Positions 1 through 20,421 of a stretch of DNA of 20,421 nucleotides are shown one piece after another. The stretch comes from a virus. Taxonomy: Duplodnaviria > Heunggongvirae > Uroviricota > Caudoviricetes. The notes under the pieces are model-generated. The model was not told the DNA's origin. It saw only the letters and a program-made list of their open reading frames with translations, and ran no database searches. The stretch is from IMG/VR virus record IMGVR_UViG_2654587509_000002. One strand, written 5' to 3'. Position numbers and translations under genes: made by a program. How positions within the stretch are numbered: the stretch's first letter is position 1; each line of letters opens with the position of its first letter.

Positions 1-59
1 GTCATCCTGTTTACCTCTTTCTCAGGGAGTTTAGTCTCCAGGATTCCCGGGGCGGTTCA
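1..59 (-). mobile_element. IS629 (IS3 family) left terminus; body of the element lies upstream of the window, inverted relative to the copy at 9112
   Basis: Bases 1-60 are the exact reverse complement of 9111-9170 (IRL TGAACCGCCCCGGGAATCC... through the orfA start). Confidence 0.85.
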
Positions 60-302
60 GTATTTCCCCGATACCTTGTGTGCAAATTGCATCAGATAGT
101 TGATAGCCTTTTGTTTGTCGTTCTGGCTGAGTTCGTGCTTACCACAGAATGCAGCCATTCCGAATCCGGCTTGTGATTGCGCCATCCCCATAGCAGCCAT
201 CACATCAGTACCGGAAAGAGAGTCAGAAGCCGTAGCCCGTGGTGAGTCGCTCATCATCGGGCTTTTTGGCGAATGAAATTTAGCTACGCTTTCGAGTCTC
301 AT
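57..302 (-). pseudogene. Q: Late antiterminator Q, N-terminal 81 codons only, truncated at the IS629 junction
   Basis: Translation [28 protein letters not shown]...KVSGKY matches the lambda Q N-terminus as I recall it; the frame runs into the IS terminus and stops at TGA 57-59. Full-length Q is about 207 aa. Confidence 0.85.
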
Positions 303-964
303 GCGCCTTCTCCCTGTACCTGAATCAATGTGAGGTTTCCGCAGAACACTGCGCCGGTATCGATATACATCTGGTTGGCAAACTTGAGTGGTTTCACTGC
401 TGGCGTATGACCAAAGATGAACGTGTCCGCACCTTTGATTTCTTTCACGATCCCGTCTTGTGAGTTGCTGATTCGTTCGCGGTTCCAGATTACCTGCTGA
501 TGATCAACTGGTTTTCCAAACTCGTATTCGTCACAAGGATAATCGGCGTGGCAGATGACATATTTTTTATCTTTGCTCACCAGTTCGATGATTAACGGAA
601 GTTCATCTGCTTTATGGGCAAGAGCTTTAGCCAGAATTTCTTTGTCGTAATCGAGATTAAAGAACCATCCACCGCCATTAAGCAGCCAGTGATTAACGTT
701 TCCACGCTCTGATAAGCCATCAATCATCATTTGCTCATGGTTTCCACGTACAGCTCTGAACCAGGGGAATGTGATTAATTCCAGGCATTCGACGTTCTCT
801 GCACCACGATCAACCAAATCGCCCACCGAGATAAGCAGGTCTTTTTTGTTGTCGAATCCAATCGTATCCAGTTTGTTCATCAGGTTCGTGTAGCATCCGT
901 GCAGATCGCCAACTACCCAAATATTTCGGTATTTGCTGCCATCAATTTTTTCGTAATAGCGCAT
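299..964 (-). CDS. ninI: Ser/Thr protein phosphatase (lambda NinI / orf221 type)
   Basis: 221 aa from [24 protein letters not shown] with GDLVDRG and GNHE metallophosphatase motifs; the 246-aa ORF is trimmed to the internal ATG at 964. Confidence 0.9.
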
Positions 965-1148
965 CTCTTTCACTCCATCCGCGATGAACCATAAGAACAT
1001 CGTTGACGATGGCGTGCATTTTCCCGTCTTTATCATCAACGTATTTTCTGACCGTACCGCGACTACATTTCAGTCTGCGTGCTACTTCTGTCTGGTTTCC
1101 GTATGCTTCAACGAGCATGTCTGGAATGGTTTTTACTGAGAACGTCAT
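942..1148 (-). CDS. ninH: NinH
   Basis: 68 aa [33 protein letters not shown]..., matching lambda NinH in length and sequence as recalled; overlaps the ninI start. Confidence 0.85.
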
Positions 1149-1756
1149 GCGGCCTCACTTCTGCTATTTCGCAGGTCTTTGAGTTTCTGTTGGTACTCTG
1201 CCTTGATCGCCTTGCACTCTTCGACAGTCCAGCGATGGCGGCTATGGTTTGATTCGATTTCGTCTACTGCTTCCTGCCCGATGCGGTTAATCAGTTCGAC
1301 GCGATACGGAACGAGATTTCCGCTTTTGTGCTGGTTGCACACCACGCATTGCTTGTGAATATTGCGTTCATCAAATCGGAGTTGAGGTGCCGCAGCAGTT
1401 GTCCGGTAATGTCCGGCATCCCACTGAGCAGACGTGAGCGTTCCGCACGAGATACATGGTAAGTCGCGGTCTCTTTCTCTGATGAAGGCGTTTACAGCTT
1501 GTTGGGCTTGTTTAATCCAGTAACTGCGGGGCTTTAAGGCGAGTTTTCGAATCTTCAGTTTATCTTTCTGTTTCTGCTCCTCTCGTCGTCGTTTCTTCTC
1601 TGCTGCTTTTTCCGCTTTTTCGCGTTCTTTGCTTCGTCGTTCCAGTGCTATCTTTGTTCCACACTCTGGAGAGCACCACCACTGATTAGCGAATGCAGGG
1701 TGAAACCATTCCCGACATTCTTCGTTTTTACATCGTCTTCGCGCTTGTTTAGCCAT
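1145..1756 (-). CDS. ninG: NinG (Rap) recombination endonuclease
   Basis: 203 aa; Cys-rich N-terminus (CKNEEC...CSPEC) and a basic coiled region; length and position as in lambda ninG. Confidence 0.85.
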
Positions 1757-2025
1757 TATGGTTCGCTCCAGTAATTCTCAATTGCAGCAGCCATTCTCTG
1801 CATCCACTCTGCCAGCTTTAACGCGGCTTCTCTTTCAGAACCACATTTAGGGAAATCCTTCATTTCCATGCTGGCCTTATATGTTCTGAATGCCAGGTCT
1901 CCGGTAATAACCAGCTCCTGATCAAGCACCGAGCGTTTATTCCGGTGTTGAACGTAATAGACAGATTCAGTCCGCATTTCTTCTCTGTCTTTTTTGAAGG
2001 AAATAAGCTCAGAGAAATCACTCAT
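1756..2025 (-). CDS. Hypothetical protein, 89 aa, nin region
   Basis: Intact ORF filling the gap between ninF and ninG with 1-nt and 8-nt overlaps to its neighbours; no counterpart recalled in lambda. Confidence 0.5.
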
Positions 2026-2194
2026 CGTCTTCTTCCTCGTACATTGAGCTATTCGGATCGCTCATCAGTTCTGCGCAGCAGTGCTCACACACATGAACTT
2101 CCAGCACATGCAGCTTCTGACCGCAGTTAGCGCACGTTAAAGCCCGCTCGACGCTTTCTTTCTGGTATTGAAGAGATTGGGATGGGCTAAGCAT
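2018..2194 (-). CDS. ninF: NinF-like small zinc-finger protein
   Basis: Hand translation from ATG at 2194: [44 protein letters not shown]..., 58 aa with a CxxC...CxxC motif; below the 60-aa ORF-track cutoff. Confidence 0.7.
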   Translation of the reverse strand: MLSPSQSLQYQKESVERALTCANCGQKLHVLEVHVCEHCCAELMSDPNSSMYEEEDDE

Positions 2195-2546
2195 TATTGG
2201 CGTCCTGCATCATGAGAAAGACAATCATGGCGGCGCGGAGGGAATTTTCATGTATAGCTCGCTTAGATTTACAGTCGGCCACACCACGTGCACCCCACTC
2301 GTCTTCATCGAGATTGATGATGCTAATCCTGTACTTCTCAATAATCGGCCATGAGGCGCTAGGATCATTGCAGTAGTCAGGCAAAGGGTTTAATGGCTCA
2401 AAAGTTGTATCAGCATTTCCGTAATACCATTTGTTGGTGTTATTCCCTGATGTTTCCGGTTTACATGCCCAAAGGCCTTTAAAAATTATGTCTCCTACCA
2501 TTCTGTTAATTTCAAAATCACTTAACTGTGAATAATCCATTGTCAT
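2187..2546 (-). CDS. Hypothetical protein, 119 aa, nin region
   Basis: ORF with ATGA overlap to the ninE stop (start [15 protein letters not shown]...); no confident family assignment. Confidence 0.5.
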
Positions 2547-2719
2547 TTCCTCGCACGATGTCTTAGCCACCGGATATCCCACAGGTGAGCCGTGTAATTG
2601 AAGGTTTTTACGTCAGATTCTTTTGGGATTGGCTTGCGTTTATTTCTGGAGCGTTTCGTTGGAAGGTATTTGCAGTTTTCGCAGATGATGTCGGTGATAC
2701 TTCGTCGCTGTCGTCTCAT
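2543..2719 (-). CDS. ninE: NinE
   Basis: 58 aa [58 protein letters not shown], recalled as lambda NinE; internal start within the 88-aa ORF. Confidence 0.75.
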
Positions 2720-3243
2720 GCCGCCCTCCTGACGCCCTGCCCGATCGCCATCAATGCCGCTTTGGATACGGTAGTAAACATCCGTCGAGGACTGATGAAC
2801 GGTCGCCAAATCAGCAGCATGGAACCTTTGCTGTTTCCCTTCTTCTCCAGCCCTGTCGATGGTTCGATAAAATTAATCCGTCCATCAGTGATAATACGAA
2901 CTTCGTCAACACTCTCCAGAGCCTTGCTGAACCATCCGACAGACATATCCTCTGGCACAAGCATCACTACCGTCTGTCGCTGTTGTATGCACTGCTCAGC
3001 GGCTTTTTCCACCCACGGCCTGATATTGCTGTACGGTGGGTTATTCCAGATTGCACCGTGGCTTACCCACTCAGAATTGAGCGCGTCGTCGGCCTCAGTT
3101 AACCAGTGAGCGCACAGAGCATTTTTGTCGCTCGCTGCCGAATCCAGCCAGAATCCAAACTCAATATCCAGTGCATCAAAAAGCCAAAGCGGCGTTTGCC
3201 AGCAGTCCTTGTCGTGTGCTGGCGTATTTGATTTGATAGTCAT
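2716..3243 (-). CDS. Phage Dam-type DNA N6-adenine methyltransferase
   Basis: 175 aa from [31 protein letters not shown]...; NPPY catalytic motif (AIWNNPPYS); occupies the lambda ninC position; ATGA overlap with the ninB stop. Confidence 0.8.
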
Positions 3244-3680
3244 GCAGCCCGATCTCCCCATCTCGCTTTCCACTCCAGAGCCAGTCTCGCTTCGTCTGAC
3301 CACTTAACGCCACGCTCTGTACCGAATGCCTGTATAAGCTCTAATAGCTCCGCAAATTCGCCTACACGCATCCTGCTGGTTGACTGGCCTATTACCACAA
3401 AGCCATTCCCGGCAAGGTTAGGAACAACATCCTGCTGCTTTAATGCTGCGGTAAACACACACTTCCAGCTTTCTGCATCCAGCCAGCGACCATGCCATTC
3501 AACCTGACGAGAGACGTCACCTAAGCAGGCCCATAGCTTCCTATTTTGGTCTAAGCTGCGGTTGCGTTCCTGAATGGTTACTACGATTGGTTTGGTTGGG
3601 TCTGGAAGGATTTGCTGTACTGCGTGAATAGCGTTTTGCTGATGTGCTGGAGATCGAATTTCAAAGGTTAGTTTTTTCAT
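3240..3680 (-). CDS. ninB: NinB (Orf) recombination mediator
   Basis: 146 aa from MKKLTFEIRSPAHQQNAIHAVQQILPDPTKP...; matches lambda NinB as recalled. Confidence 0.9.
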   Translation of the reverse strand: MKKLTFEIRSPAHQQNAIHAVQQILPDPTKPIVVTIQERNRSLDQNRKLWACLGDVSRQVEWHGRWLDAESWKCVFTAALKQQDVVPNLAGNGFVVIGQSTSRMRVGEFAELLELIQAFGTERGVKWSDEARLALEWKARWGDRAA

Positions 3681-3696
3681 GACTTCCCTCTCCCCC

Positions 3697-3727
3697 AAAT
3701 AAAAAGGCCTGCGATTACCAGCAGGCC
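3697..3727 (-). terminator. Rho-independent terminator at the tR2 position, between ren and ninB
   Basis: Minus-strand transcript forms stem GGCCUGC / loop / GCAGGCC (3706-3727) followed by a U-run (plus-strand A-run 3697-3705). Confidence 0.6.
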
Positions 3728-3753
3728 TGTTATTAGCTCAGTAATGTAGATGG

Positions 3754-4044
3754 TCATCTTTTAACTCCATATACCGCCAATACCCGTTTCATCGCGGCAC
3801 TCTGGCGACACTCCTTAAAAATCAGGTTCGTGCTCATCTTTCCTTCCCGTTCTTCCCTGGTAGCAAACCGGTAATACACCGTTCGCCAGACCTTACCTTC
3901 GATAACCAGAAGACCTGCCCGTGCCATTTTAGCCGCGGCCTGATTTATGCTGGTTACTGTTGCGCCTGTTAGCGCGGCAACGTCCGGCGCACAGAAGCTA
4001 TTATGCGTCCCCAGGTAATGAATAATTGCCTCTTTGCCCGTCAT
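3754..4044 (-). CDS. ren: Ren
   Basis: 96 aa MTGKEAIIHYLGTHNSFCAPDVAALTG...; length and sequence as recalled for lambda Ren; directly downstream of P. Confidence 0.85.
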   Translation of the reverse strand: MTGKEAIIHYLGTHNSFCAPDVAALTGATVTSINQAAAKMARAGLLVIEGKVWRTVYYRFATREEREGKMSTNLIFKECRQSAAMKRVLAVYGVKR

Positions 4045-4742
4045 ACACTTGCTCCTTTCAGTCCGAACTTAGCTTTAATTTCTGCGATCTTCGCCAGAGC
4101 CTGTGCACGATTTAGAGGTCTACCGCCCATAACAGGAAGTTGTTTTACTGGTTCAGGTATCGTCTCACCACGGTTAATTCGCGCTGTCATACAGGTCAGT
4201 TCATCGGCAGCCTTGCGCCGTAATTCCGCATCAGTAAGCGCATTGGCCCGCATGTTCTGATACAGGTTGGTAACCAGCCAGTAGTGCGCGTTTGATTTCC
4301 ACGGATAAGACTCCGCATCCGGATACAGGCCTCGCTTCCGGCAATACTCGTAAACCATATCAACCAGCTCGCTGACGTTTGGCAGTCCGGCGATAACGGA
4401 TGCTTCTTCCCGGCACCATGCAACAAACTGCCCGGGTGATGGCAGAAATGGTCGATTCTGCCGACGGGCTACGCGCATTCCTGCGTTAACCTGTTCCATC
4501 GTGGTGATCCCGTTTTCCCGAAAAGCCAGAACCCACTGGCGACGGATTTCGTTCACTTCGTTCTGGTCACGGTTAGCCAGGCTCGCCGGGAAAGTTGCCA
4601 GTAACTGGCTGAACACACCGTTGATGATCTGCGCTACCTGCTGTACCTGCGGCTTTTCGTCGTACTGTTCCGGCATGTTGTTGGCGATCCGACGCATCTG
4701 CTCACGGTCAAAGTTAACCATCTGTGCGGCGATGTTTTTCAT
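4041..4742 (-). CDS. P: Replication protein P (DnaB helicase loader)
   Basis: 233 aa MKNIAAQMVNFDREQMRRIANNMPEQYDEKPQ...; lambda P length; ATGA overlap with O. Confidence 0.95.
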   Translation of the reverse strand: MKNIAAQMVNFDREQMRRIANNMPEQYDEKPQVQQVAQIINGVFSQLLATFPASLANRDQNEVNEIRRQWVLAFRENGITTMEQVNAGMRVARRQNRPFLPSPGQFVAWCREEASVIAGLPNVSELVDMVYEYCRKRGLYPDAESYPWKSNAHYWLVTNLYQNMRANALTDAELRRKAADELTCMTARINRGETIPEPVKQLPVMGGRPLNRAQALAKIAEIKAKFGLKGASV

Positions 4743-5638
4743 AGATCCACCCCGTAAATCCAGTCTGTGTTTGTCAGGTCGAGTTTTGGTTTGCTGGCTG
4801 TCACGACTGCCTGTTGCTTGTTACGGTTGATTTCGAGCTGGGTCCACTTGTCGCGGAGTTTGGCCGGACTAAGCACGTTACCGGACCAGAAGTTGTCCTG
4901 GCATGCCCAGCGGAACAGCACGCACATGTCGCGGTGGTTACGTCCGTCACGTTCACGCATCAGGCGGATATCGTTAGCCCACCCTGCAAAATTCGGTTTT
5001 CTGGCTGATGGCGCGATGGTCTTCACCATGTCAAACATCCACTCTGCGGCGGTCAGGTCTTCTGCTGTCCCCCACTTGCTGCCGCTCTGAATTGCAGCAT
5101 CCGGTTTCACCACAGAAAGATCGTTTTCTGGCTGGTCAGAGGATTCGCCAGAATTCTCTGACGAATAATCTTTTCTTTTTTCTTTTGTAATAGTGTCTTT
5201 TGTGTCCCTCTGTTTTGAGGGATAGCAATCCCCCAATTTGAGGGATGTTTTATCCCTCGTTTTAGGGGATTTTCCCTCGTTTTGAGGGATACACCATTCT
5301 GAGATGTTTTTATTTGGTCCAAACATGCCGCCTTGCTGCTTGATAATATTCATTCTGACGAGTTCTAACTTGGCTTCATTGCACCGTTTGACGGGTAACT
5401 TTGTAATCTCGCTAAGTTGAGAATCGGTGACTCTGTCCATTGGTTTATTCCACCCATAGGTTTTACGCAGAATGGCAAGCAGCACTTTAAACTGTCGCTT
5501 GGTCAGATCTGCGCCCGAATAAGCCTCAAGCAGCATATTTGATAGTCTGGCGTAACCATCATCGAGATCTGCCACATTACGCTCCTGTCCGGCAAAGTTA
5601 CCTCTGCCGAAGTTGAGTATTTTTGCTGTATTTGTCAT
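4739..5638 (-). CDS. O: Replication initiator O
   Basis: 299 aa MTNTAKILNFGRGNFAGQERNVADLDD...; contains the origin iterons internally, as in lambda. Confidence 0.95.
   Translation of the reverse strand: MTNTAKILNFGRGNFAGQERNVADLDDGYARLSNMLLEAYSGADLTKRQFKVLLAILRKTYGWNKPMDRVTDSQLSEITKLPVKRCNEAKLELVRMNIIKQQGGMFGPNKNISEWCIPQNEGKSPKTRDKTSLKLGDCYPSKQRDTKDTITKEKRKDYSSENSGESSDQPENDLSVVKPDAAIQSGSKWGTAEDLTAAEWMFDMVKTIAPSARKPNFAGWANDIRLMRERDGRNHRDMCVLFRWACQDNFWSGNVLSPAKLRDKWTQLEINRNKQQAVVTASKPKLDLTNTDWIYGVDL
5165..5290. repeat. Lambda-type replication origin: four 19-bp iterons plus the adjacent AT-rich tract, inside O
   Basis: Four spaced copies of tccctc-N7-gagggat between about 5206 and 5290 (for example tccctctgttttgagggat, ttccctcgttttgagggat) and the A/T tract ttttcttttttcttttgtaatag at 5166-5192. 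Confidence 0.85.
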
Positions 5639-5670
5639 AATGACTCCTGTTGATAGATCCAGTAATGACC

Positions 5671-5964
5671 TCAGAACTCCATCTGGATTTGTTCAGAACG
5701 CTCGGTTGCCGCCGGGCGTTTTTTATTGGTGAGAATCGCAGCAACTTGTCGCGCCAATCGAGCCATGTCGTCGTCAACGACCCCCCATTCAAGAACAGCA
5801 AGCAGCATTGAGAACTTTGGAATCCAGTCCCTCTTCCACCTGCTGATCTGCGACTTATCAACGCCCACAGCTTCCGCTGTCTTCTCAGTTCCAAGCATTG
5901 CGATTTTGTTAAGCAACGCACTCTCGATTCGTAGAGCCTCGTTGCGTTTGTTTGCACGAACCAT
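5671..5964 (-). CDS. cII: Transcriptional activator cII
   Basis: 97 aa MVRANKRNEALRIESALLNKIAMLGTEKTAEAVGVDKSQISRWKRDWIPKF...; internal start of the 117-aa ORF. Confidence 0.95.
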   Translation of the reverse strand: MVRANKRNEALRIESALLNKIAMLGTEKTAEAVGVDKSQISRWKRDWIPKFSMLLAVLEWGVVDDDMARLARQVAAILTNKKRPAATERSEQIQMEF

Positions 5965-6043
5965 ATGTAAGTATTTCCTTAGATAACAATTGATTGAATG
6001 TATGCAAATAAATGCATACACCATAGGTGTGGTTTAATTTGAT

Positions 6044-6075
6044 GCCCTTTTTCAGGGCTGGGATGTGTAAGAGCG
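6044..6075 (-). promoter_or_regulatory. nutR (boxA and boxB) N-utilisation site
   Basis: On the minus strand, boxA CGCTCTTAC (plus 6067-6075) precedes the boxB hairpin GCCCTGAAAAAGGGC (plus 6044-6058), between cro and cII. Confidence 0.75.
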
Positions 6076-6083
6076 GGAATATC

Positions 6084-7439
<1,356 letters not shown>

Positions 7440-7489
7440 TCCCCACCTCAATCTCGATAACCAAAAAACAAACTATTTTCCGTTTAAAA

Positions 7490-7558
7490 ACAATGGAGTT
7501 TGTTTTTCATGCCCCTTTTTTACAATATTTCTTGTTTACAACATACAATCTTTCTTGT
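7490..7558. promoter_or_regulatory. Left operator (three 434-type 14-bp sites) with the pL region
   Basis: ACAATGGAGTTTGT (7490-7503), ACAATATTTCTTGT (7522-7535) and ACAATCTTTCTTGT (7545-7558), each ACAA-N6-TTGT, with the same spacing as OR. Confidence 0.75.
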
Positions 7559-7604
7559 AATTTTAAGCCATCAGCAGGACGCACTGACCACCATTGAAGG
7601 TGAT

Positions 7605-7634
7605 GCTCTTAAAAATTAAGCCCTGAAGAAGGGC
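7605..7634 (+). promoter_or_regulatory. nutL (boxA-like and boxB)
   Basis: GCTCTTAAA (7605-7613) followed by the boxB hairpin GCCCTGAAGAAGGGC (7620-7634), upstream of N. Confidence 0.8.
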
Positions 7635-7792
7635 AGCATTCAAAGCAGAAGGCTTTGGGGTGTGTGATACGAAACGAAGCATTGGCCGGAAGTGCGAATC
7701 CGGATTAGCTGCAAATGAGCCAATCGTGGGGTGTTTTCGTTCAGGACTACGACTCACACACACCACCAAAGCTAACTGACAAGAGAATCCAG

Positions 7793-8116
7793 ATGGATGC
7801 ACAAACACGCCGCCGCGAACGTCGCGCAGAGAAACAGGCTCAATGGAAAGTAGCAAATCCCCTGTTGGTTGGGGTAAGCGCAAAACCAGTTAACCGCCCT
7901 ATTCTCTCGCTGAATCGCAAACCGAAATCACGAGTAGAAAGCGCACTGAATCCGATAGACCTTACAGTGCTGGCTGAATACCACGAACAGATTGAAAGCA
8001 ACCTGCAACGTATTGAGCGCAAGAATCAGCGCACATGGTACAGCAAGCCTGGCGAACGCGGCATAACATGCAGTGGACGCCAGAAAATTAAGGGAAAATC
8101 GATTCCTCTTACCTAG
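7793..8116 (+). CDS. N: Antitermination protein N
   Basis: 107 aa MDAQTRRRERRAEKQAQWK...; arginine-rich motif at the N-terminus; lambda N length; the ORF-track 5' extension is rejected. Confidence 0.95.
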   Translation: MDAQTRRRERRAEKQAQWKVANPLLVGVSAKPVNRPILSLNRKPKSRVESALNPIDLTVLAEYHEQIESNLQRIERKNQRTWYSKPGERGITCSGRQKIKGKSIPLT

Positions 8117-8671
8117 TTACTTAGATATTGGCCTTGGCTTTATCTCAATATTATATGGATCATAGCTGGCAACTAATTCAGTCCAGTAAATATCCTCAAT
8201 AGGGAATAATATATGCTTCCCGTTCCATCGGGAAAAAGTTTTGTTCAACACACCAAGCTCAATCAACTCACTAATGTATGGGAATTGTTTTGATGTAACC
8301 ACATACTTCCTGCCTTCATTAAGGGCTGCGCACAAAACCATAGATTGCTCTTCTGTAAGGTTTTGAATTACCGATCGCACTTTATCGTTTTGCATCTTAA
8401 TGCGTTTTCTTAGCTTAAATCGCTTATATTTGGCGCTGGCAATAGCTGATAATCGATGCACATTAATTGCTAGCGAAAATGCAAGAGCAAAGACGAAAAC
8501 ATGCCACACATGAGGAATACCGATTCTCTCATTAACATATTCAGGCCAGTTATCTGGGCTTAAAAGCAGAAGTCCAACCCAGATAACGATCATATACATG
8601 GTTCTCTCCAGAGGTTCATTACTGAACACTCGTCCGAGAATAACGAGTGGATCCATTTCTATACTCATCAA
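8117..8671 (-). CDS. sieB: Superinfection exclusion protein B (SieB)
   Basis: 184 aa MMSIEMDPLVILGRVFSNEPLERTMYMIVIWVGLLLL... with hydrophobic segments; transcribed opposite to N, as in lambda. Confidence 0.8.
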   Translation of the reverse strand: MMSIEMDPLVILGRVFSNEPLERTMYMIVIWVGLLLLSPDNWPEYVNERIGIPHVWHVFVFALAFSLAINVHRLSAIASAKYKRFKLRKRIKMQNDKVRSVIQNLTEEQSMVLCAALNEGRKYVVTSKQFPYISELIELGVLNKTFSRWNGKHILFPIEDIYWTELVASYDPYNIEIKPRPISK

Positions 8672-8795
8672 ACTGTAGGGGTTGTAATAGTTTATCCGAT
8701 TTCTCGCTGTAGGGGTACACGAGAACCACCGAGCCTGATGTGGTTAAAAGACAGGCACAATCTTTACTACCGCAATCCACTATTTAAGGTGATAT

Positions 8796-8882
8796 ATGGA
8801 AGAAGAATTTGAAGAGTTCGAAGAGCATCCGCAGGATGTAATGGAACAGTACCAGGACTATCCGTATGACTACGACTATTGA
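8796..8882 (+). CDS. Small acidic ORF (lambda orf28-like), 28 aa
   Basis: Hand translation MEEEFEEFEEHPQDVMEQYQDYPYDYDY; overlaps the ral start; below the ORF-track size cutoff. Confidence 0.5.
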   Translation: MEEEFEEFEEHPQDVMEQYQDYPYDYDY

Positions 8883-9045
8883 TAAGAATCAATGGTGTGG
8901 ACAATTCAAGCGATGCAATGGATGCAAGCTGCAATCGGAATGCATGGTTAAGCCTGAAGAAATGTTTCCTGTAATAGAAGATGGGAAATATGTCGATAAA
9001 TGGGCAATACGAACGACGGCAATGATTGCCAGAGAACTTGGTTAA
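8866..9045 (+). CDS. ral: Restriction alleviation protein Ral, apparently shortened by 7 residues
   Basis: Hand translation MTTTIDKNQWCGQFKRCNGCKLQSECMVKPEEMFPVIEDGKYVDKWAIRTTAMIARELG then TAA; the in-frame continuation QNNKAA-TGA resembles the lambda Ral C-terminus as recalled. Confidence 0.8.
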   Translation: MTTTIDKNQWCGQFKRCNGCKLQSECMVKPEEMFPVIEDGKYVDKWAIRTTAMIARELG

Positions 9046-9165
9046 CAGAACAACAAAGCTGCCTGATAGTGGCCTTTATTTTTGGCATAAATAACAGAAT
9101 AAACACTGCACTGAACCGCCCCGGGAATCCTGGAGACTAAACTCCCTGAGAAAGAGGTAAACAGG

Positions 9166-9492
9166 ATGACTAAAAATACTCGTTTTTCCCCTGAAGTCCG
9201 TCAACGGGCAGCCCGTATGGTTCTGGAAAGTCAGGGCGAATATGACTCACAATGGGCGACAATTTGTTCCATTGCTCCAAAGATTGGCTGTACGCCGGAG
9301 ACTCTGCGTGTCTGGGTTCGCCAGCATGAGCGGGATACCGGGGGCGGTGATGGAGGGCTCACCACCGCTGAACGTCAGCGTCTGAAAGAGCTGGAGCGTG
9401 AAAATCGTGAACTGCGCCGCAGTAACGATATCCTTCGCCAGGCTTCCGCTTATTTTGCGAAGGCGGAGTTCGACCGCCTCTGGAAAAAATAA
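9166..9492 (+). CDS. IS629 transposase OrfA (HTH and leucine-zipper subunit)
   Basis: 108 aa [55 protein letters not shown]...; ends in an A6 run just before orfB. Confidence 0.9.
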
Positions 9493-10379
9493 TGCCGCTG
9501 CTGGATAAGCTGCGTGAGCAGTACGGGGTCGGACCGCTATGCAGCGAACTGCATATTGCCCCGTCAACGTATTACCACTGTCAGCAACAGCGACATCATC
9601 CGGATAAACGCAGTGCCCGTGCGCAGCGCGATGACTGGCTGAAGAAAGAGATACAGCGCGTATACGATGAAAATCACAAGGTATACGGTGTGCGTAAAGT
9701 CTGGCGTCAGTTGTTACGGGAAGGAATCAGAGTGGCCAGATGCACTGTGGCACGTCTCATGGCGGTTATGGGACTTGCCGGTGTTCTCCGGGGTAAAAAG
9801 GTCCGCACTACCGTCAGCCGGAAAGCCGTTGCCGCATGCGACCGCGTAAACCGTCAGTTCGTGGCAGAACGTCCAGACCAGTTGTGGGTGGCTGATTTTA
9901 CCTGGGTAAGCACATGGCAGGGCTTCGTTTATGTGGCGTTCATCATTGATGTGTTCGCCGGATACATCGTGGGATGGCAGGTCTCATCATCCATGGAAAC
10001 AACATTCGTGCTGGATGCACTGGAGCAGGCGTTGTGGGCCCGTCGGCCGTCCGGCACAATCCATCACAGTGATAAAGGTTCTCAGTATGTATCGCTGGCC
10101 TACACGCAGCGGCTTAAGGAAGCCGGATTACTGGCATCAACAGGGAGTACTGGCGACTCGTATGACAACGCGATGGCGGAGAGCATCAATGGTCTTTACA
10201 AAGCGGAGGTAATACACCGTAAGAGCTGGAAAAACCGTGCAGAAGTGGAACTGGCCACACTCACGTGGGTGGACTGGTATAACAATCGACGATTGCTGGA
10301 AAGGCTGGGCCATACTCCCCCGGCAGAAGCAGAAAAAGCTTATTATGCTTCCATCGGAAACGATGATCTGGCAGCCTGA
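9492..10379 (+). CDS. IS629 transposase OrfB (DDE catalytic domain), normally expressed as an OrfAB fusion by -1 frameshift
   Basis: 295 aa, in the -1 frame relative to orfA and overlapping its stop; IS3-family integrase-core motifs (HSDKGSQY..., ...ESINGLYKAE). Confidence 0.9.
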   Translation: MPLLDKLREQYGVGPLCSELHIAPSTYYHCQQQRHHPDKRSARAQRDDWLKKEIQRVYDENHKVYGVRKVWRQLLREGIRVARCTVARLMAVMGLAGVLRGKKVRTTVSRKAVAACDRVNRQFVAERPDQLWVADFTWVSTWQGFVYVAFIIDVFAGYIVGWQVSSSMETTFVLDALEQALWARRPSGTIHHSDKGSQYVSLAYTQRLKEAGLLASTGSTGDSYDNAMAESINGLYKAEVIHRKSWKNRAEVELATLTWVDWYNNRRLLERLGHTPPAEAEKAYYASIGNDDLAA

Positions 10380-10421
10380 GTTCACAGATAAAACACTCTC
10401 CAGGAAACCCGGGGCGGTTCA

Positions 10422-10610
10422 CTGCGTGTGTGGGTTCGTCAGCATGAGCGGGATACCGGGAGTGGTGATGGTGGACTCACCACCGCTGAACGTCAGCGTC
10501 TGAAAGAGCTGGAACGTGAAAATCGTGAACTGCGCCGCAGTAACGATATCCTTCGCCAGGCTTCCGCTTATTTTGCGAAGGCGGAGTTCGACCGCCTCTG
10601 GAAAAAATAA
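10422..10610 (+). pseudogene. IS629 orfA remnant (C-terminal 62 codons, no native start)
   Basis: In-frame continuation of orfA codons from the truncation point; the ORF track shows it only via a GTG start at 10428. Confidence 0.8.
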
Positions 10611-11497
10611 TGCCGCTGCTGGATAAGCTGCGTGAGCAGTACGGGGTCGGACCGGTATGCAGTGAACTGCATATTGCCCCGTCAACGTATTACCACTGTC
10701 AGCAACAGCGACATCATCCTGATAAACGCAGTGCCCGTGCTCAGCGCGATGACTGGCTGAAGAGAGAGATACAGCGCGTATACGATGAAAATCATCAGGT
10801 GTACGGTGTGCGTAAAGTCTGGCGCCAGTTGTTACGCGAAGGTATCAGGGTGGCCAGATGTACAGTGGCGCGCCTCATGGCGGTTATGGGACTTGCCGGT
10901 GTTCTCCGGGGTAAAAAGGTCCGTACTACCGTCAGCCGGAAAGCCGTTTCCGCAGGCGACCGCGTAAACCGTCAGTTCGTGGCAGAACGTCCTGACCAGC
11001 TGTGGGTGGCTGATTTTACTTACGTCAGCACATGGCAGGGCTTCGTCTATGTGGCGTTCATCATTGATGTGTTTGCCGGATGTATCGTGGGGTGGCGAGT
11101 CTCATCGTCTATGGAAACGACATTCGTGCTGGATGCACTGGAGCAGGCGTTGTGGGCCCGTCGGCCGTCCGGCACAGTCCATCACAGTGATAAAGGTTCT
11201 CAGTATGTATCACTGGCCTATACGGAGCGACTAAAAGAAGCAAAACTGCTGGCATCAACAGGGAGTACAGGTGACTCGTATGACAACGCGATGGCGGAGA
11301 GCATCAATGGTCTTTACAAAGCGGAGGTAATACACCGTAAGAGCTGGAAAAACCGTGCAGAAGTGGAACTGGCCACACTCACGTGGGTGGACTGGTATAA
11401 CAATCGACGATTGCTGGGAAGGCTGGGTCATATCCCTCCGGCAGAAGCAGAAAAAGCTTATTATGCTTCCATCAGAAACGATGATCTGGCAGCCTGA
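10610..11497 (+). CDS. IS629 OrfB, second copy (intact frame; expression doubtful because orfA is truncated)
   Basis: 295 aa, about 95% identical to the first OrfB with scattered substitutions (for example K52R, W138Y, Y158C). Confidence 0.8.
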   Translation: MPLLDKLREQYGVGPVCSELHIAPSTYYHCQQQRHHPDKRSARAQRDDWLKREIQRVYDENHQVYGVRKVWRQLLREGIRVARCTVARLMAVMGLAGVLRGKKVRTTVSRKAVSAGDRVNRQFVAERPDQLWVADFTYVSTWQGFVYVAFIIDVFAGCIVGWRVSSSMETTFVLDALEQALWARRPSGTVHHSDKGSQYVSLAYTERLKEAKLLASTGSTGDSYDNAMAESINGLYKAEVIHRKSWKNRAEVELATLTWVDWYNNRRLLGRLGHIPPAEAEKAYYASIRNDDLAA

Positions 11498-11539
11498 GTT
11501 CACAGATAAAACACTCTCCAGGAAAACCGGGGCGGTTCA

Positions 11540-11953
11540 GGGCTGTATTCCAATGCCACGTTGACAGATGCTGACCCTCAGGCAATTGAAGATGCCATTA
11601 ATGACCTCGAAGACATGATGGCAGCATGGCAGGCTAAAGGTATCGAGCTTGGATATCAGTTTGCTGATACAGAAAACGGCATCATGCCGTTACCTGACGA
11701 TGATTCAGGTATCCCTGCGTGGGCAAATGATGGCGTCGCTTTGAAGCTCGCTGTGCAAGTGTGCATGGATAACGTCATTCAGCCGTCAGATGCTCTCCTT
11801 ACCGCTGCTGACAGCGCATATCAGACAATCTGCATCGCTTTAACCAAAATACCACCACTTGAGCGGCGAAATGACATGCCTCGCGGTAGTGGTAACAAAA
11901 GCGCGTTTACGTGGAATCGGTTTTACATCGAGAAAGATGATCCAAGTACGTGA
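11540..11953 (+). pseudogene. gp4: P22-like gene 4 (head completion / tail accessory protein), 5'-truncated by IS629
   Basis: Frame is open from the IS boundary (GLYSNATLTDADPQAIEDAINDLEDMMAAW...), 137 codons remaining; no start codon with a ribosome-binding site; followed by gene 10 as in P22. Confidence 0.7.
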
Positions 11954-11962
11954 GGTGAATAA

Positions 11963-12067
11963 ATGCCGATTCAGCAACTTCCGCTTATGAAAGGTGTCGG
12001 CAAAGACTTTCGAAACGCCGACTATATCGACTATCTGCCAGTGAATATGCTGGCAATTTTGATATAA
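11963..12067 (+). pseudogene. Orphaned 5' fragment of P22-like gene 10 (34 codons)
   Basis: GAGGTGA ribosome-binding site then [34 protein letters not shown]-stop; first 31 residues are homologous to the start of the intact gene 10 at 12636 ([31 protein letters not shown]). Confidence 0.7.
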
Positions 12068-12103
12068 TAAGTACATGAAAAATCGAAACTTTAAGGAGTA
12101 GAT

Positions 12104-12688
12104 ATGCTTTCTGAGAATGCTAAAGATATACCTGGATTTGAAGGTGTTTATGCCGTAACAGAAGATGGCAGGGTATATTCTCACTCACGTGTTGTTAAGG
12201 CTGCGCATGGCAGCACGCAACTCAGAAAGGGGCGCTGGTTAAAGCCTAAAATCAATCAGGGAAGGGTGCTTTATAATATCGGAGCAAAATGGACTTTTGC
12301 CCATCGAATCGTTGCAATGACATTCCTGCCAAATCCTGAAAACAAGCCTCAGGTAAATCATATTGATGGCAATCCACTCAATAATAACGTCAATAATCTT
12401 GAGTGGTGCACTCAAAGCGAAAACATCAAACATGCATACGCCACCGGATTAAAGAAACCAATCAAGTTTTTCGGAACCAAGCACCCAAAACACAAGTTGA
12501 GTGATGACGATGTTCTTGCAATCAAGTCATCAAAAGAAAGCTTGTCAGTAATTGCGGCTAAGTACGGGATATCTAAGACCTGGGCAAGTAGGCTAAAGCG
12601 TGATGCTAACTGGGTTCATATAAAGGTTGATTCCAATGGCAATACAACAACTACCACTAATGAAGGGATTGGGGAAAAGTGCGGTTAA
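12104..12688 (+). CDS. HNH homing-endonuclease-like protein (NUMOD4-like N-terminus plus HNH motif)
   Basis: 194 aa; AAGGAG ribosome-binding site; GFEGVYAVTEDGRVYS (NUMOD4-like), HRIVAMTF...VNHIDGNPLNNNVNNLEWCTQSENIKHA (HNH); AT-rich; 3' end overlaps the gene 10 start. Confidence 0.8.
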   Translation: MLSENAKDIPGFEGVYAVTEDGRVYSHSRVVKAAHGSTQLRKGRWLKPKINQGRVLYNIGAKWTFAHRIVAMTFLPNPENKPQVNHIDGNPLNNNVNNLEWCTQSENIKHAYATGLKKPIKFFGTKHPKHKLSDDDVLAIKSSKESLSVIAAKYGISKTWASRLKRDANWVHIKVDSNGNTTTTTNEGIGEKCG

Positions 12689-14054
12689 TGCTGATTATAT
12701 AGACCAACTTCCAGTCAATCTTTTAGCTACGCCCAAGGAGGTGTTGAATTCATCGGGATATCTTCGCTCATTCCCGGGCATTGCCAAACGTTCTGATGTG
12801 AACGGCGTATCGCGAGGCGTCGAGTACAACATGGCGCAGAGTGCTGTTTATCGCGTGTGTGGTGGCAAGCTGTACAAAGGAGAAAGTGAAGTTGGTGATG
12901 TTGCCGGAAGTGGTCGCGTATCAATGGCACATGGTCGGACATCACAGGCGGTAGGCGTTAATGGTCAACTGGTCGAATACCGCTATGATGGCACGGTTAA
13001 AACCGTCTCAAACTGGCCTACGGACAGCGGATTCACGCAGTATGAGTTAGGTTCGGTCCGTGACATTACGCGTTTACGTGGGCGTTATGCGTGGTCAAAA
13101 GACGGTACTGATTCATGGTTTATCACTGACCTTGAAGACGAATCGCATCCTGACCGCTACAGCGCACAATATCGGGCAGAATCGCAGCCGGACGGTATCA
13201 TCGGCATCGGAACATGGCGAGATTTCATCGTCTGCTTTGGTTCATCGACGATTGAATATTTTTCCCTGACTGGTGCAACCACCGTTGGTGCCGCTTTGTA
13301 TGTCGCACAGCCATCACTAATGGTGCAAAAAGGAATCGCCGGGACTTACTGCAAAACGCCATTCTCTGATTCATATGCGTTCATCAGCAATCCGGCAACA
13401 GGTGCGCCGTCTGTGTACATCATCGGCTCCGGTCAGGTGTCACCAATCGCCAGTGCGAGCATTGAGAAAATCCTCCGCTCCTACACTGCTGATGAACTGG
13501 CTGATGGCGTGATGGAATCGTTGCGGTTTGATGCTCATGAGTTGCTGATTATCCATCTTCCGCGTCACGTCCTCGTGTACGACGCATCTTCAAGCGCCAA
13601 TGGTCCGCAATGGTGTGTGCTTAAAACAGGCCTGTATGACGATGTGTACCGCGCTATCGACTTCATTTACGAAGGCAATCAGATAACGTGCGGCGATAAG
13701 CTGGAATCGGTGACCGGGAAATTGCAGTTCGATATCAGCAGTCAGTATGGGCTTCAACAGGAACACCTTCTGTTTACTCCGTTGTTCAAAGCGGATAACG
13801 CCAGATGCTTCGATCTGGAGGTGGAATCGTCCACTGGCGTAGCTCAGTACGCCGACCGCCTGTTCCTCTCTGCGACCACTGACGGCATAAATTACGGTCG
13901 TGAGCAGATGATTGAGCAGAATGAACCGTTCGTTTACGACAAACGCGTTTTGTGGAAGCGAGTCGGGCGCATCAGGAAAAATGTCGGCTTCAAATTGCGC
14001 GTTATCACGAAGTCACCTGTCACTCTGTCTGGCTGCCAGATAAGGATTGAGTAA
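12636..14054 (+). CDS. gp10: P22-like gene 10 tail accessory factor
   Basis: 472 aa from ATG 12636, the same length as P22 gp10; position between genes 4 and 26. Confidence 0.8.
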
Positions 14055-14755
14055 TGGCTGATTCGAATCTCAACACCCCTGTTATTGTGCAGGCGACGCG
14101 GCTCGATACATCAATCCTTCCACGCAATATATTCAGCCAGTCTTACCTGCTGTATGTCATTAATCAGGGGGCTGATGTCGGCGCAATTGCCGGGAAGGCA
14201 AATCAGGCTGGTCAGGGCGCTTACGATGCTCAGGTGAAAAACGATGAACAGGACGTCGAACTGGCTGATCACGACGCAAGAATCACCGCAAACACAAAAG
14301 CGATAAATCTACTTGAGGTCAGGTTAACAACTGCCGAAGGGAAGATAGTCGTACTGCGTAGCGATGTTGATTACTTGCTGGATGAGGTTATCGATATTCA
14401 GGCGCATCTGGTCACTGTTGACCAAAGACTGGATGACGTAGAAAACGATGTCTCTGGCATTAAGAGTGATTACGTATCGAAAACCGTAACCGAATTGCAG
14501 TCTCTTGAGTCACCGCTGGATGTAAAAACATCATATTCAGTTGATGGAATTCAGGTTGTTGGAGCAAGAAATACCGGATGGACTGCAGCCACAGGTACGC
14601 CACTTCTTGGCTCATTCAACGCTAACCAGTCATACACTGTCGGCACTACGTACACACAATCCGAAGTCGCAGCTCTCGCTACAGGTTTGCAGCAGGCGCG
14701 GCAGCGTATTCTGGCGCTTGAAACGGCACTTAGATTACATGGGCTGATTGACTGA
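14054..14755 (+). CDS. gp26: P22-like gene 26 tail needle
   Basis: 233 aa [36 protein letters not shown]... with a heptad-rich coiled core and C-terminal ...[14 protein letters not shown], as recalled for P22 gp26. Confidence 0.85.
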
Positions 14756-15210
14756 TGATTACATTCAAACCAACGCGAAACATCGACCTGATAGAAGCAG
14801 TCGGAAATCACCCTGACATTATCGCCGGGAGCAACAACGGCGATGGATACGACTACAAACCTGAATGCCGTTACTTTGAGGTGAGCGTGCACGGGCAGTT
14901 CGGCGGCATTGTTTACTATCAGGAGATTCAGCCGCTGACATTCGATTGCCACGCCATGTACCTGCCAGAGGTTCGTGGATTCAGCAAGGAAATCGGTCTG
15001 GCGTTCTGGCGATACATTCTGACTAACACCACCGTTCAGTGCGTCACATCGTTCGCTGCACGCAAATTCCGCCACGGGCAGATGTACTGCGCAATGATTG
15101 GCCTTAAGCGTGTAGGAACCATCAAGAAATACTTCAAAGGCGTGGATGACGTGACTTTTTACAGTGCTACACGCGAAGAACTAATCGAATTCCTGAATCA
15201 CGGGAGATAG
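14755..15210 (+). CDS. gp14: P22-like gene 14 protein
   Basis: 151 aa; synteny between gene 26 and gene 7; ATGA-type overlap with the gene 26 stop. Confidence 0.7.
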   Translation: MITFKPTRNIDLIEAVGNHPDIIAGSNNGDGYDYKPECRYFEVSVHGQFGGIVYYQEIQPLTFDCHAMYLPEVRGFSKEIGLAFWRYILTNTTVQCVTSFAARKFRHGQMYCAMIGLKRVGTIKKYFKGVDDVTFYSATREELIEFLNHGR

Positions 15211-15212
15211 CC

Positions 15213-15905
15213 ATGTTATATGCATTTAAGCTGGGCAGAAAACTGCGCGGCGAGGAACCTTATTGCCATGAAAAAGGCGGGAAAGGTGGCAGCTCTGATA
15301 AAAGCGCAAAGTATGCAGCAGAAGCTCAGAAGTATGCCGCAGACCTGCAAAATCAGCAGTTCAACACCATCATGAACAACCTGAAACCGTTTACTCCTCT
15401 GGCTGAGAAGTATGTCGGCAGCCTCGAGAACTTATCGTCTCTGGAGGGGCAAGGTCAGGCGCTTAACCAGTATTACAACTCTCAGCAGTATAAAGACCTT
15501 GCAGGTCAGGCTCGCTATCAGAGTCTGGCTGCAGCGGAAGCAACAGGTGGATTGGGTTCCACCGCAACCAGTAATCAGTTAGCAACAATCGCACCAACGC
15601 TTGGTCAGCAATGGCTATCTGGTCAGATGAACAACTACCAGAATCTGGCAAATGTTGGTCTTGGCGCACTGCAAGGTCAGGCAAACGCCGGGCAGACATA
15701 TGCCAACAACATGAGTCAGATTTCTCAGCAAAGTGCGGCTCTTGCAGCGGCAAATGCCAACAGACCATCAGCAATGCAATCTGCTATTGGCGGAGGTGCG
15801 TCTGGTGCTATTGCTGGGGCTGGACTTGCGAAATTAATTGGTTCATCCACTCCGTGGGGGGCTGCGATCGGCGGCGGTCTTGGTCTGCTTGGCTCGTTGT
15901 TTTAA
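15213..15905 (+). CDS. gp7: P22-like gene 7 ejection (internal virion) protein
   Basis: 230 aa MLYAFKLGRKLRGEEPYC...; Q/N/A-rich with a Gly-rich hydrophobic C-terminus; length and order as P22 gp7. Confidence 0.8.
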   Translation: MLYAFKLGRKLRGEEPYCHEKGGKGGSSDKSAKYAAEAQKYAADLQNQQFNTIMNNLKPFTPLAEKYVGSLENLSSLEGQGQALNQYYNSQQYKDLAGQARYQSLAAAEATGGLGSTATSNQLATIAPTLGQQWLSGQMNNYQNLANVGLGALQGQANAGQTYANNMSQISQQSAALAAANANRPSAMQSAIGGGASGAIAGAGLAKLIGSSTPWGAAIGGGLGLLGSLF

Positions 15906-15914
15906 GGGGTAATC

Positions 15915-17330
15915 ATGGCTACGTGGCAACATGGTATTAATTCTGGTGGTTTTCTGGCTGGCATCGGTACGCAAAATGAGAATGCGCCAAAGGCAAGCGA
16001 CATTAACGCAACGCTTGGTCTGATCCGCGAAAACAATGAGTTGGCTCGCTCAGGTGCAAATAACGTTGGTCTGACCGCGTTACGTGGTCTGGCTGGAGTT
16101 GCTGATATTTACAATCAGGAACAGCAACAGAAAGCGATTAGTGCGTTCAATAAGGTTCACGCTGATGCATGGGCTTCTGGTGATCCATCGGGACTATTTA
16201 AGTTTGCCCAGGAAAATCCAGCGTTTGTTGCACAGGCACAACAGGCGTTTTCTGGTCTTAATGATCAGCAACGCAACGATATGGGCGATTTAGCCATGAG
16301 GGCTAACGTCGCTCTTTCTCAGGGACCGGAAGCCTACAGTAAATTCATTACTGACAACAAGGACAGGTTAAATCGCGTTGGTGCTAATGCTGACTGGATG
16401 ATTCAGACAGGTATCCAGAATCCAGAGCAGCTATCACACATGCTGACTACTATGTCTCTCGGTGCGCTTGGACCAGAAAAGGCGTTTGCTGTTCAGGATA
16501 AGATGGCTGGTCGTGAAATTGACCGAGGCAGGCTGGCAGAGACAATCCGCAGCAATCAGGCTGGTGAAGCACTTCAGGCGAGAGGGCAAAACCTTTCCTA
16601 TCAGTCAGCAATGACTGGGCACAATATCGCAGCACAACGCTTGGCTCTGGATCAGCAAGAGTTCGGGTTTAAGATGCAGCAAGCGCAGGAAAAGGCTCAG
16701 CAGTTGATTAGTGAAGCACCTAAGCTGTCAGTAAACATGGAAAAAGGCATCGAGACGGCTGTAAACAATGCCACAGCATCATCAAACTCAGCCAATTCTA
16801 TGAGTGCGCTTGCTCAACAGTTCAGAGCAGAAAAACCAACGACAGGTTTGTTCGGTAACGCACAGAACATGTTCGCAAAACTTACCGGAAGCGATACGAC
16901 ATTGCGTGATTTGCGCATCCGCCAAAATGCCCTTGTTAACAGTCAGGTTCTTAAATTCCTACCTCCCGGCCCAGCAACGGATAAAGACGTTGAGATCGTT
17001 CGGCAGGGTGCGCCAACTGACATGGATAACCCTGAGACGGTCGCAAGATGGCTTGATGCAATGGCAAACCTTGAGCGACGAAACGCGCAGTTTAATGAGT
17101 TTAAAGCTGAGTGGATGAGCGCGAATGGCAATCCTGGACAATCGCGTAATGGCGGTCAGATATTGGGGTTGGATGTTAAAAAAGGTGAATCATTGGGGAG
17201 TGCCGTTAAGCGGTATATGTCATTGAATACTGACGCAGCGCCAGCACAAGATTCGACACCTTCAGGAGAACCACGGAATCAGGTTGGATCATATACCTCA
17301 AAATCAGTCATTCAATTTACGGTGGAATGA
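15915..17330 (+). CDS. gp20: P22-like gene 20 ejection protein
   Basis: 471 aa, identical in length to P22 gp20; synteny. Confidence 0.8.
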
Positions 17331-19168: not shown

Positions 19169-19192
19169 CGTATGGGAAATTGGATTCAATCG

Positions 19193-19582
19193 CTAACATT
19201 TTCTTTTTACTTTTCCAACAAAAGCTTTGGTTGAATCCATATTTCCATAACCGGAAATGGTTTTTGACATTAAAACTGTTCCAGTAGGATGTATTACCCA
19301 TGAGTCGATAACGCGTTGAGTTTCGCCATTCGCGCCGATTCCTATGATGGAGTTTTTAGACAATGCTTTGTAAGCCATGCCGCCCGCATCTGTCCCAGAA
19401 TATGTGATGCTGGCATCTTCACCGTTTGTCTTAATGATGAATGTTCCACTAAAACCATCTTCTTCCGGATGGAAATTATTTCGTTCTGAATAGCTTATTC
19501 CGCGCATATCTCCAACGACCCAGCACTCTGCTGTAGCCCCAAAAGATATGAATAAGAACATAGCAGTAAGAAATTGCTTCAC
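19193..19582 (-). CDS. Secreted (periplasmic) protein of unknown function, 129 aa, paralog of the cI-linked gene at 7035
   Basis: GTG start preceded by a strong ribosome-binding site (TAAGGAGGttggcGTG); signal peptide MKQFLTAMFLFISFGATA then ECW; shared motifs with 7035-7439 (ECW[IV]V, TNGED/INGD, Y.ALS, [ST]W.I, STK[AS]FVG.V, C-terminal Cys). Confidence 0.7.
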   Translation of the reverse strand: MKQFLTAMFLFISFGATAECWVVGDMRGISYSERNNFHPEEDGFSGTFIIKTNGEDASITYSGTDAGGMAYKALSKNSIIGIGANGETQRVIDSWVIHPTGTVLMSKTISGYGNMDSTKAFVGKVKRKC

Positions 19583-19699
19583 GCCAACCTCCTTAGTTTT
19601 GAGCAGGATACCATGAAAAAAGTAAACATCTTTTGCCTACTTCACATTTGAATGGTTTGTCATTAGGATGTTTCCGGTTTTTTAAATATGGAAATTGAT

Positions 19700-20119: not shown

Positions 20120-20126
20120 TAAATGG

Positions 20127-20150
20127 AACCCACCATCAGGTGGGTTTTTT
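20127..20150. terminator. Rho-independent terminator between the convergent lipoprotein gene and mnt
   Basis: ACCCACC-atca-GGTGGGT hairpin followed by TTTTTT (20144-20150); the mnt stop codon lies in the loop. Confidence 0.7.
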
Positions 20151-20387: not shown

Positions 20388-20421
20388 TCTTGATGCCTCG
20401 CTTTTGTGAGTGGATCGGCAT

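Follow-up and report, generated by a model that had tools for sequence, protein, structure and literature searches.

Remnants of a lambdoid prophage, probably disabled recently by IS629, on an Escherichia coli draft contig

Does a prophage that has lost its late functions but keeps full-length immunity, replication and exclusion genes hold them for the benefit of its host, or has it been broken too recently to have lost them? The stretch of DNA analysed here (the window, 20,421 bp) raises this question. It makes up the whole of draft contig JHSY01000129.1 (assembly GCA_001266215.1, locus L004), so both of its ends are assembly breaks, and absence from the window is not absence from the genome. 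The left break sits 59 nt within an insertion sequence. The right end lies 34 nt upstream of the start of mnt (window 20421, against L029 from 8980); in sibling assemblies, what follows past 20421 is a tailspike that has a GDPD domain, and after it the yagU-ecp region, so this end is not explained by a repeat. Five segments make up the contig. The early block has insertion sequence (IS) ends on both sides and is oriented opposite to the virion block, two points on which the preliminary description was silent.

1-59, minus strand: left inverted repeat and first 59 nt of IS629, pointing out of the contig, with the body past the contig end (exact inverted match to 9110-9170)
60-9111: lambda/434-like early block, from the truncated Q (Q') to ral, in inverted orientation
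9112-10421, plus strand: IS*, a complete 1310-bp IS629-family element of a rare variant, in the ral-ea10 spacer, with orfA at 9166-9492, orfB at 9492-10379 and a pseudoknot at 9447-9563
10422-11539, plus strand: 5'-truncated IS629 (positions 193-1310), adjoining the right end of IS* and codon 17 of gp4, with orfB at 10610-11497 and Rfam ALIL at 10565-10681
11540-20421: P22-like virion block, from inside gene 4 to mnt

At its outer end the early block breaks off inside the gene for the late antiterminator.

57-302, minus strand: truncated Q, codons 1-81 of 207 plus a stop supplied by the IS (tblastn, Pfam)

As had been described, Q is cut after codon 81 with 243 nt left. Positions 60-302 on the minus strand encode 81/81 residues identical to residues 1-81 of lambda-type Q, and the stop, TGA at 57-59, comes from the IS: these three bases open the left inverted repeat of IS629, TGAACCGCCCCGGG. 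The nucleotides of Q' show 3 differences in 243 from lambda imm434 and 0 from L054 and L062, two intact relatives discussed below. Full-length lambda-type Q, which has 207 aa in both lambda imm434 and L054, carries two Antiterm repeats and a zinc ribbon, and Q' is not such a protein. Its match to Pfam Antiterm (PF03589) covers profile positions 1-62 of 87, the first repeat only, and both the zinc ribbon (residues ~113-152) and the second Antiterm repeat are gone (residues 113-199). The solved lambda Q constructs cover residues 61-207 or 38-207, and with the folded core at residues 61-207, Q' keeps only about 21 core residues.

The virion block begins with a second cut gene, the loss of whose start had escaped the preliminary description.

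11540-11953, plus strand: truncated gp4 (head-tail adaptor), codons 17-153 (tblastn)
11963-12067, plus strand: 34-aa duplicate of the gp10 N-terminus
12104-12688, plus strand: HNH homing endonuclease
End of the 11963-19168 stretch, plus strand: gp10, gp26, gp14, gp7, gp20 and gp16 (PHROG, tblastn)
19193-19582, minus strand: hex paralogue
19700-20119, plus strand: lipoprotein-like ORF (signal sequence ending LLSGC; PHROG 6823), between the hex paralogue and mnt
20136-20387, minus strand: mnt

Here gp4 is without its first 16 codons, the cut falling at 11540. PHROG and Pfam matches together with gene order (gp4-gp10-gp26-gp14-gp7-gp20-gp16, then mnt) identify a P22-like, Lederbergvirus-type virion module, with end-to-end PHROG profile matches for gp10, gp26, gp14, gp7, gp20 and gp16. 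The ejection proteins are intact, in agreement with the earlier account (gp7, 230 aa; gp20, 471 aa; gp16, 612 aa). The tailspike lies beyond the contig end and is present in the sibling L029.

The qut/pR' region and the lysis and head-assembly genes, noted earlier as absent, were found nowhere in the window by tblastn or blastn. When the window was searched by tblastn with Q, holin, endolysin, Rz and KilA-N of an intact P22-like relative, only Q 1-81 matched, and TerS, TerL, portal, scaffold and coat of such a relative gave no match; nor did blastn of the window with that relative's 10.7-kb Q-to-gp4 interval or with lambda Q(82-207)-qut-S. Judging from its sequence, the element is unable to run the late programme, with Q', a truncated gp4 and about 10.85 kb missing between two IS629 ends. 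The functions of lytic growth are lost, as judged within the contig, and the term cryptic prophage, for an element that cannot lyse or package, holds up: Q and gp4 are truncated, and the lysis and packaging genes are missing from the contig.

Both cuts adjoin IS629-family sequence. IS629 is a 1310-bp element with TGAACCGCCCCGGG termini, orfA and orfB, and a -1 frameshift pseudoknot, and we find it here as a near-identical truncated copy and a 59-nt Q-side end. Between the truncated copy and the O55/O157-type IS629 annotated in phage JLK-2012, whose host is O55:H7, identity is 99.64%. IS* carries Pfam HTH_Tnp_1 and rve domains and the Rfam ALIL element and is only 94.7% identical to the same annotated IS629, which makes it a variant of the IS629 family and not IS629 proper; among E. 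coli chromosomes and plasmids, just 30 records contain copies at least 99% identical to it. The two variants, about 5% apart and both with ALIL pseudoknots, are nested, IS* sitting at nt 192/193 of the O55/O157-type IS629. Window positions 1-59 are the same 59 nt as in the IS629 of JLK-2012, and these first 59 nt are the same in IS629 and IS*. A sibling assembly, JHSG, shows 78 nt of the IS at the Q junction and has an A at IS position 69, the base of O55/O157-type IS629 (IS* has T). On this one diagnostic base, the IS at Q is probably of the O55/O157 type. Together with the 99.64% copy at gp4, it indicates that Q' adjoins the left end of IS629 and gp4 its right end. The 3-bp target duplication was not found: the flanks read CAC/CTG around the internal IS pair and TAC/GGG at Q' and gp4, as against the 3-bp TAC duplication of the JLK-2012 copy. 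Flanks without a target duplication are consistent with rearrangement after insertion.

Against these losses stands an early block in which the preliminary description had listed cI, cro, the operators, N, both nut sites, O, P, the ori, sieB and the secreted-protein gene linked to cI (hex) as intact.

299-3680, minus strand: nin region, with ninI (299-964), ninH, ninG, orf89, ninF, ninX, ninE, dam methylase and ninB (gene calls, translations)
3754-4044, minus strand: ren
4041-4742, minus strand: P
4739-5638, minus strand: O
About 5204-5288, within O: ori-lambda-type iterons ITN1-4
5671-5964, minus strand: cII
6044-6058 and 6068-6075: nutR boxB and boxA
6084-6299, minus strand: cro
6313-6371: OR1-3, starting at 6313, 6335 and 6358
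6406-7038, plus strand: cI
7035-7439, plus strand: hex, signal-peptide protein
7490-7558: OL1-3, starting at 7490, 7522 and 7545
7620-7634: nutL boxB
7793-8116, plus strand: N
8117-8656, minus strand: sieB
8866-9045, plus strand: ral, 59 aa, with TAA at codon 60

Measured against lambda imm434, the genes named in that description are full length, and its sites are present. The products have 107 aa (N), 299 aa (O, with four iterons), 233 aa (P), 179 aa (sieB) and 134 aa (hex), and identity to lambda imm434 is 71/71 residues for cro, 209/210 for cI, 132/134 for hex, 104/107 for N, 296/299 for O, 229/233 for P, 97/97 for cII and 146/146 for ninB. The early region of lambda imm434 and phage 434 is 98.4-98.7% identical to the window at the nucleotide level, from ral to Q codon 81, and the two share the six 14-bp operators, N, both nut sites, O, P, ren and the ori iterons. 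The window differs from lambda imm434 in that dam, ninX and orf89 replace ninC and ninD, and in its P22-like virion genes and IS-cut Q. The nin genes are all full length, with 100% nucleotide identity to the intact prophages L054 and L062.

Immunity is of the 434 type, with 434 cI and cro and six 14-bp operators (ACAA-N6-TTGT) around cI; OR3 reads ACAG...TTGT. The immunity region (5671-7439) is 99.89% identical in nucleotides, with 0 gaps, to that of the NS-NP030 prophage (L023). The module is thus essentially that of phage 434, and from its sequence it is predicted to work and to be imm434-specific.

Some features of the early block might be taken for decay. An AAA-to-TAA change at codon 60 of ral (9043-9045) leaves 59 aa in place of the usual 66, and a G-to-A change at 5209 (O nt 430) falls in the right arm of iteron 4 and also makes O Gly144Arg. 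Among the classical origin mutations is ti12, another point mutation in ITN4. The ral stop allele is common to the intact prophages L054 and L062 and to an unrelated prophage, L003, and the ITN4 variant to the intact relatives and to the apparently intact NS-NP030 prophage. We rejected the ral stop, the ITN4 change and indels in the operator region as signs of decay, as the same changes occur in intact or apparently intact prophages; the presence of the ral stop and the ITN4 variant in intact relatives makes these two ancestral.

Exact-protein matches to HNH and gp16 were too widespread to pick out close relatives, which matches to gp10 and O did. Found through the exact O protein, L054 (GCA_012715415.1) and L062 (GCA_023529175.1) are identical to window positions 60-9113 at 9054/9054 positions, and in both the early genes lead on to a 207-aa Q, holin, endolysin, Rz, KilA-N, Sf6-type TerS and TerL. 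Found through exact gp10 among others, L045 (GCA_053107115.1) is identical to window positions 11540-20421 at 8880/8882 positions (99.98%); it carries terminase, portal, scaffold, coat, a full gp4, HNH and the genes from gp10 to the tailspike, followed by a chromosomal yagU-like gene. L054 and L045 have 3378 bp in common, an overlap with 100% identity. This overlap, with the identity of the window to both, makes the two blocks parts of one prophage that is intact elsewhere, and the treatment of the early and ejection-protein blocks as a single element in the preliminary description is borne out. The parent prophage, with 434 immunity, lambda N, O, P and ren, a lambda-type Q and a P22-like virion module, is intact in other E. 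coli. It shares with the window the gene order, the ral stop and the ITN4 variant; it differs in keeping the 207-aa Q and the missing interval, 10,847 bp on the intact map from Q nt 244 to gp4 codon 16 (L054 15580-20900 plus L045 3379-8904; qut, lysis, terminase, portal, scaffold, coat and the start of gp4), and in having no IS at any of the window's three IS sites. An independent precedent for the architecture comes from E. coli EC332, whose P22-like prophage combines cI and cro of the 434 type with a Q of the lambda type. We had considered a join by IS of two unrelated prophages, since the nearest relatives of the early block in complete genomes are lambda-like siphoviral prophages at att-lambda; it was ruled out by the intact prophages, which carry both blocks contiguously.

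We therefore read the window as two remnants of one lambdoid prophage that was recently disabled by IS629, in which the intact frames reflect recency and not selection, and we give this reading a probability of about 80%. The preliminary description had seen in the same pattern a retention for host benefit, and that part of it did not survive the comparison. With 0 substitutions in 9 kb and 2 in 8.9 kb, the frames would be intact under neutrality just as under selection, and the 9-kb block offers no variation for a dN/dS calculation; the intact frames carry no information on selection. That immunity, exclusion and accessory genes were kept under selection after the lytic functions were lost, as in a domesticated cryptic prophage, is unlikely in our view. 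The genes that such selection would act on are certainly there: cI, cro, the operators, sieB, hex and its paralogue are intact and could guard against superinfection, and the kil side of the left arm does not adjoin the early block. Yet domestication implies persistence across diverged lineages and purifying selection after inactivation, and neither was found. The prophage has had no time for decay and bears no signal of purifying selection, and the junctions occur only in near-clonal siblings (JHSY and JHSG, with JHSA sharing the gp4 junction); of the complete genomes, none has them. The proteins gp7, gp20 and gp16 are as intact as the immunity genes though useless without a capsid, which fits recency. 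Where an intact-looking immunity, replication and exclusion set stands beside a broken late region, domestication readily suggests itself. The window is a caution against that reading, being a remnant too young for its intact genes to bear such a signal.

The replication genes weigh against a benefit as well. In replicative killing, derepression of a fragment that cannot be excised sets off its ori within the chromosome; the cell dies, and mutations in O, P or ori are found in the survivors (PMC6022878). Such killing is obtained with just this set of genes, N-cI-cro-cII-O-P-ori with the late genes missing, and this argues against benefit; O, P, ori and N are intact here, a state harmful on induction without excision. 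The intact replication genes are a cost if the functional link to int and xis has been lost.

How the two blocks are joined depends on the assemblies, of which the siblings JHSG and JHSA belong to one accession series with JHSY. Contig JHSG01000002.1 (L060, 427 kb) matches window positions 1-11539 at 99.957%, including the junctions of Q' with the IS, of ral with IS* and of IS* with IS629 position 193. JHSG01000027.1 starts 98 nt inside the right end of IS629 and runs through gp4 at 99.99% identity, and JHSA01000023.1 (48,002 bp, as JHSG01000027.1) has the same truncated-gp4 layout by gene calls. All four junctions thus recur in JHSG, and the IS629-gp4 junction also in JHSA. Past the right end of the truncated IS629, JHSG01000002.1 continues into a gene for a 535-aa integrase and a DUF4145 gene, not into gp4; this integrase/DUF4145 locus is uninterrupted in other E. 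coli. Because JHSG exits the IS differently, either the strains differ or at least one of the assemblies leaves unverified the early-virion join, which spans about 1.1 kb of multi-copy IS629. The disagreement between JHSY and JHSG may be either a mis-join through the repeat or an IS629-mediated rearrangement between strains, and the physical adjacency of the early and virion blocks is unproven. Three clustered mismatches at 10795-10801, in the truncated IS629, belong to the JHSG copy, and we did not take them as proof of a switch of assembly path.

An incomplete or mis-joined assembly, with simple IS insertions in Q, gp4 and the ral-ea10 spacer and the missing 10.85 kb on another contig, might then account for the layout, and we regard this as a real if minor possibility. 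In its favour, the contig that makes up the window breaks off within an IS, IS629-type elements are present in multiple copies, the JHSG contig passes from the same truncated IS to another locus, and IS left ends that are identical over 59 nt make for ambiguous graph paths. On the other side, the IS*-IS629 and ral-IS* junctions are unique sequences present in two assemblies, the left end at Q and the right end at gp4 are oriented as one element replacing the interval, and neither internal IS has a target duplication. Q and gp4 are disrupted regardless, so that even on this account the prophage is still defective.

The junctions were also sought more widely. That between Q' and IS629 occurred 0 times in 5,426 complete E. 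coli genomes, GTDB species representatives and JGI metagenome contigs, and that between ral and the IS was found in none of the 5,426 complete E. coli genomes; apparent matches in complete genomes to the IS*-IS629 and IS629-gp4 junctions proved to be two-piece joins at other sites.

The exact 81-aa product nevertheless turned up on contigs of many different prophage contexts, as it might if codon 81 of Q were a recurrent IS629 hotspot or mosaic joint and Q' a common, possibly functional allele. We find this very unlikely. Where the context is readable, the sequences stop at Q nt 243/244, the next base being the native C, or at a scaffold gap, and only on the window's contig is there an IS; the junction, besides, was absent from the complete E. 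coli genomes, the species-representative genomes and the JGI metagenome contigs. The Q' look-up is biased towards contigs ending at Q nt 243/244, finding only those. Unrelated draft contigs among L003, L005, L007, L008, L009 and L011 stop exactly there, and one scaffold has a gap at this point whose far side repeats Q from about nt 66. Such contig stops suggest that assemblies break within Q at a repeat or a mosaic boundary.

Returning to recent disabling by IS629, the junction sequences are directly observed, and from them we infer an order of events. Laid out in phage-map orientation, the two IS629 ends look as if a single IS629 had replaced the 10,847 bp. In a first step, IS629 would have inserted, and recombination between IS copies or an adjacent deletion would have removed the late block. 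IS* would then have entered both IS629 (nt 192/193) and the ral-ea10 spacer, in opposite orientations, and an inversion of the 9-kb early block by recombination between these two IS* copies may finally have produced the present order of the contig. On this history, the sequence past the contig's left end is predicted to be IS629 nt 60-192, then an inverted IS*, and after that ea10-cIII-kil as far as int. With a single contig visible, the 10.85-kb block could also persist elsewhere in the genome between IS629 copies, not deleted.

As to behaviour, near-identity to studied genes suggests that cI434 would repress pL and pR and render the host immune to imm434 phages, and that sieB and hex would be expressed in the lysogen. 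On SOS cleavage of cI, N, O and P would probably be made and the ori would fire, and no late transcription, lysis or packaging would follow. One might go further and see in the 9-kb block from ral to Q', flanked by inverted IS629-family copies, a unit under selection of its own, an invertible or even composite-transposon-like anti-phage cassette kept by the clone. If that were true, it would carry 434 immunity, SieB exclusion and a repressor-gated origin and would act through immunity plus a replicative suicide triggered by SOS or infection; we consider it very improbable.

The K-12 cryptic prophages DLP12, Rac and Qin are grounded lambdoid remnants that form no particles and are old, heavily decayed and widely conserved. 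In contrast, the window shows no decay and is confined to one clone. A closer likeness is to the RK+ defective lambda prophages, such as that of strain Y836 (PMC6022878), which also keep N-cI-cro-cII-O-P-ori and have lost the late genes. Like them, the window is without int-kil within the contig, and by analogy ori firing in the chromosome would be expected on induction; it differs in its natural IS origin, in having 434 and not lambda immunity, and in its cleavable wild-type repressor. The strain may be a natural counterpart of these laboratory replicative-killing constructs, if the phenotypes are measured.

IS629 insertions that turn genes into pseudogenes (for example stx2::IS629 in O157:H7 FRIK1275) and prophage-associated deletions and inversions are documented in enterohaemorrhagic E. 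coli (EHEC) (PMC7430833). In the P22-like prophage of O111:H- 11128, IS1203, of the same IS family, is found in the scaffold gene and upstream of gp4, where it lies 205 bp upstream of the window's gp4 junction and thus at a different site. The window stands apart from these EHEC prophages disrupted by IS629 or IS1203 in its two nested IS variants and its missing 10.85-kb block. The process itself is well known; the window adds one more instance, seen very shortly after the event, and is a case of ordinary recent breakage. As a worked example, it illustrates how the IS629 family disables a prophage, with one insertion nested in another, 10.85 kb missing and, probably, an inversion. It also illustrates how draft contigs that end in or cross IS copies can mislead, with two siblings differing on what follows the IS.

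Two minor observations concern genes of the window in their own right. An HNH/NUMOD4 gene lies between gp4 and gp10, and the 34-aa duplicate of gp10 in front of it is a typical homing footprint. The exact HNH protein occurs in 1569 indexed blocks, in P22-like prophages with and without other differences.

The second concerns Hex. The ORF at 19193-19582 (minus strand) is a paralogue of hex (27% identity, E = 2e-12) and lies downstream of gp16, where P22 has sieA. Hex (7035-7439, plus strand) and the paralogue both have N-terminal signal peptides and share a conserved ECW...FVG..C frame; Hex gave no significant match against solved structures. The published role of Hex is cytoplasmic, shielding the repressor from RecA. 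A secreted Hex, as the signal peptide predicts, is hard to reconcile with that role. A start-codon problem for hex is flagged within the lambda imm434 record itself.
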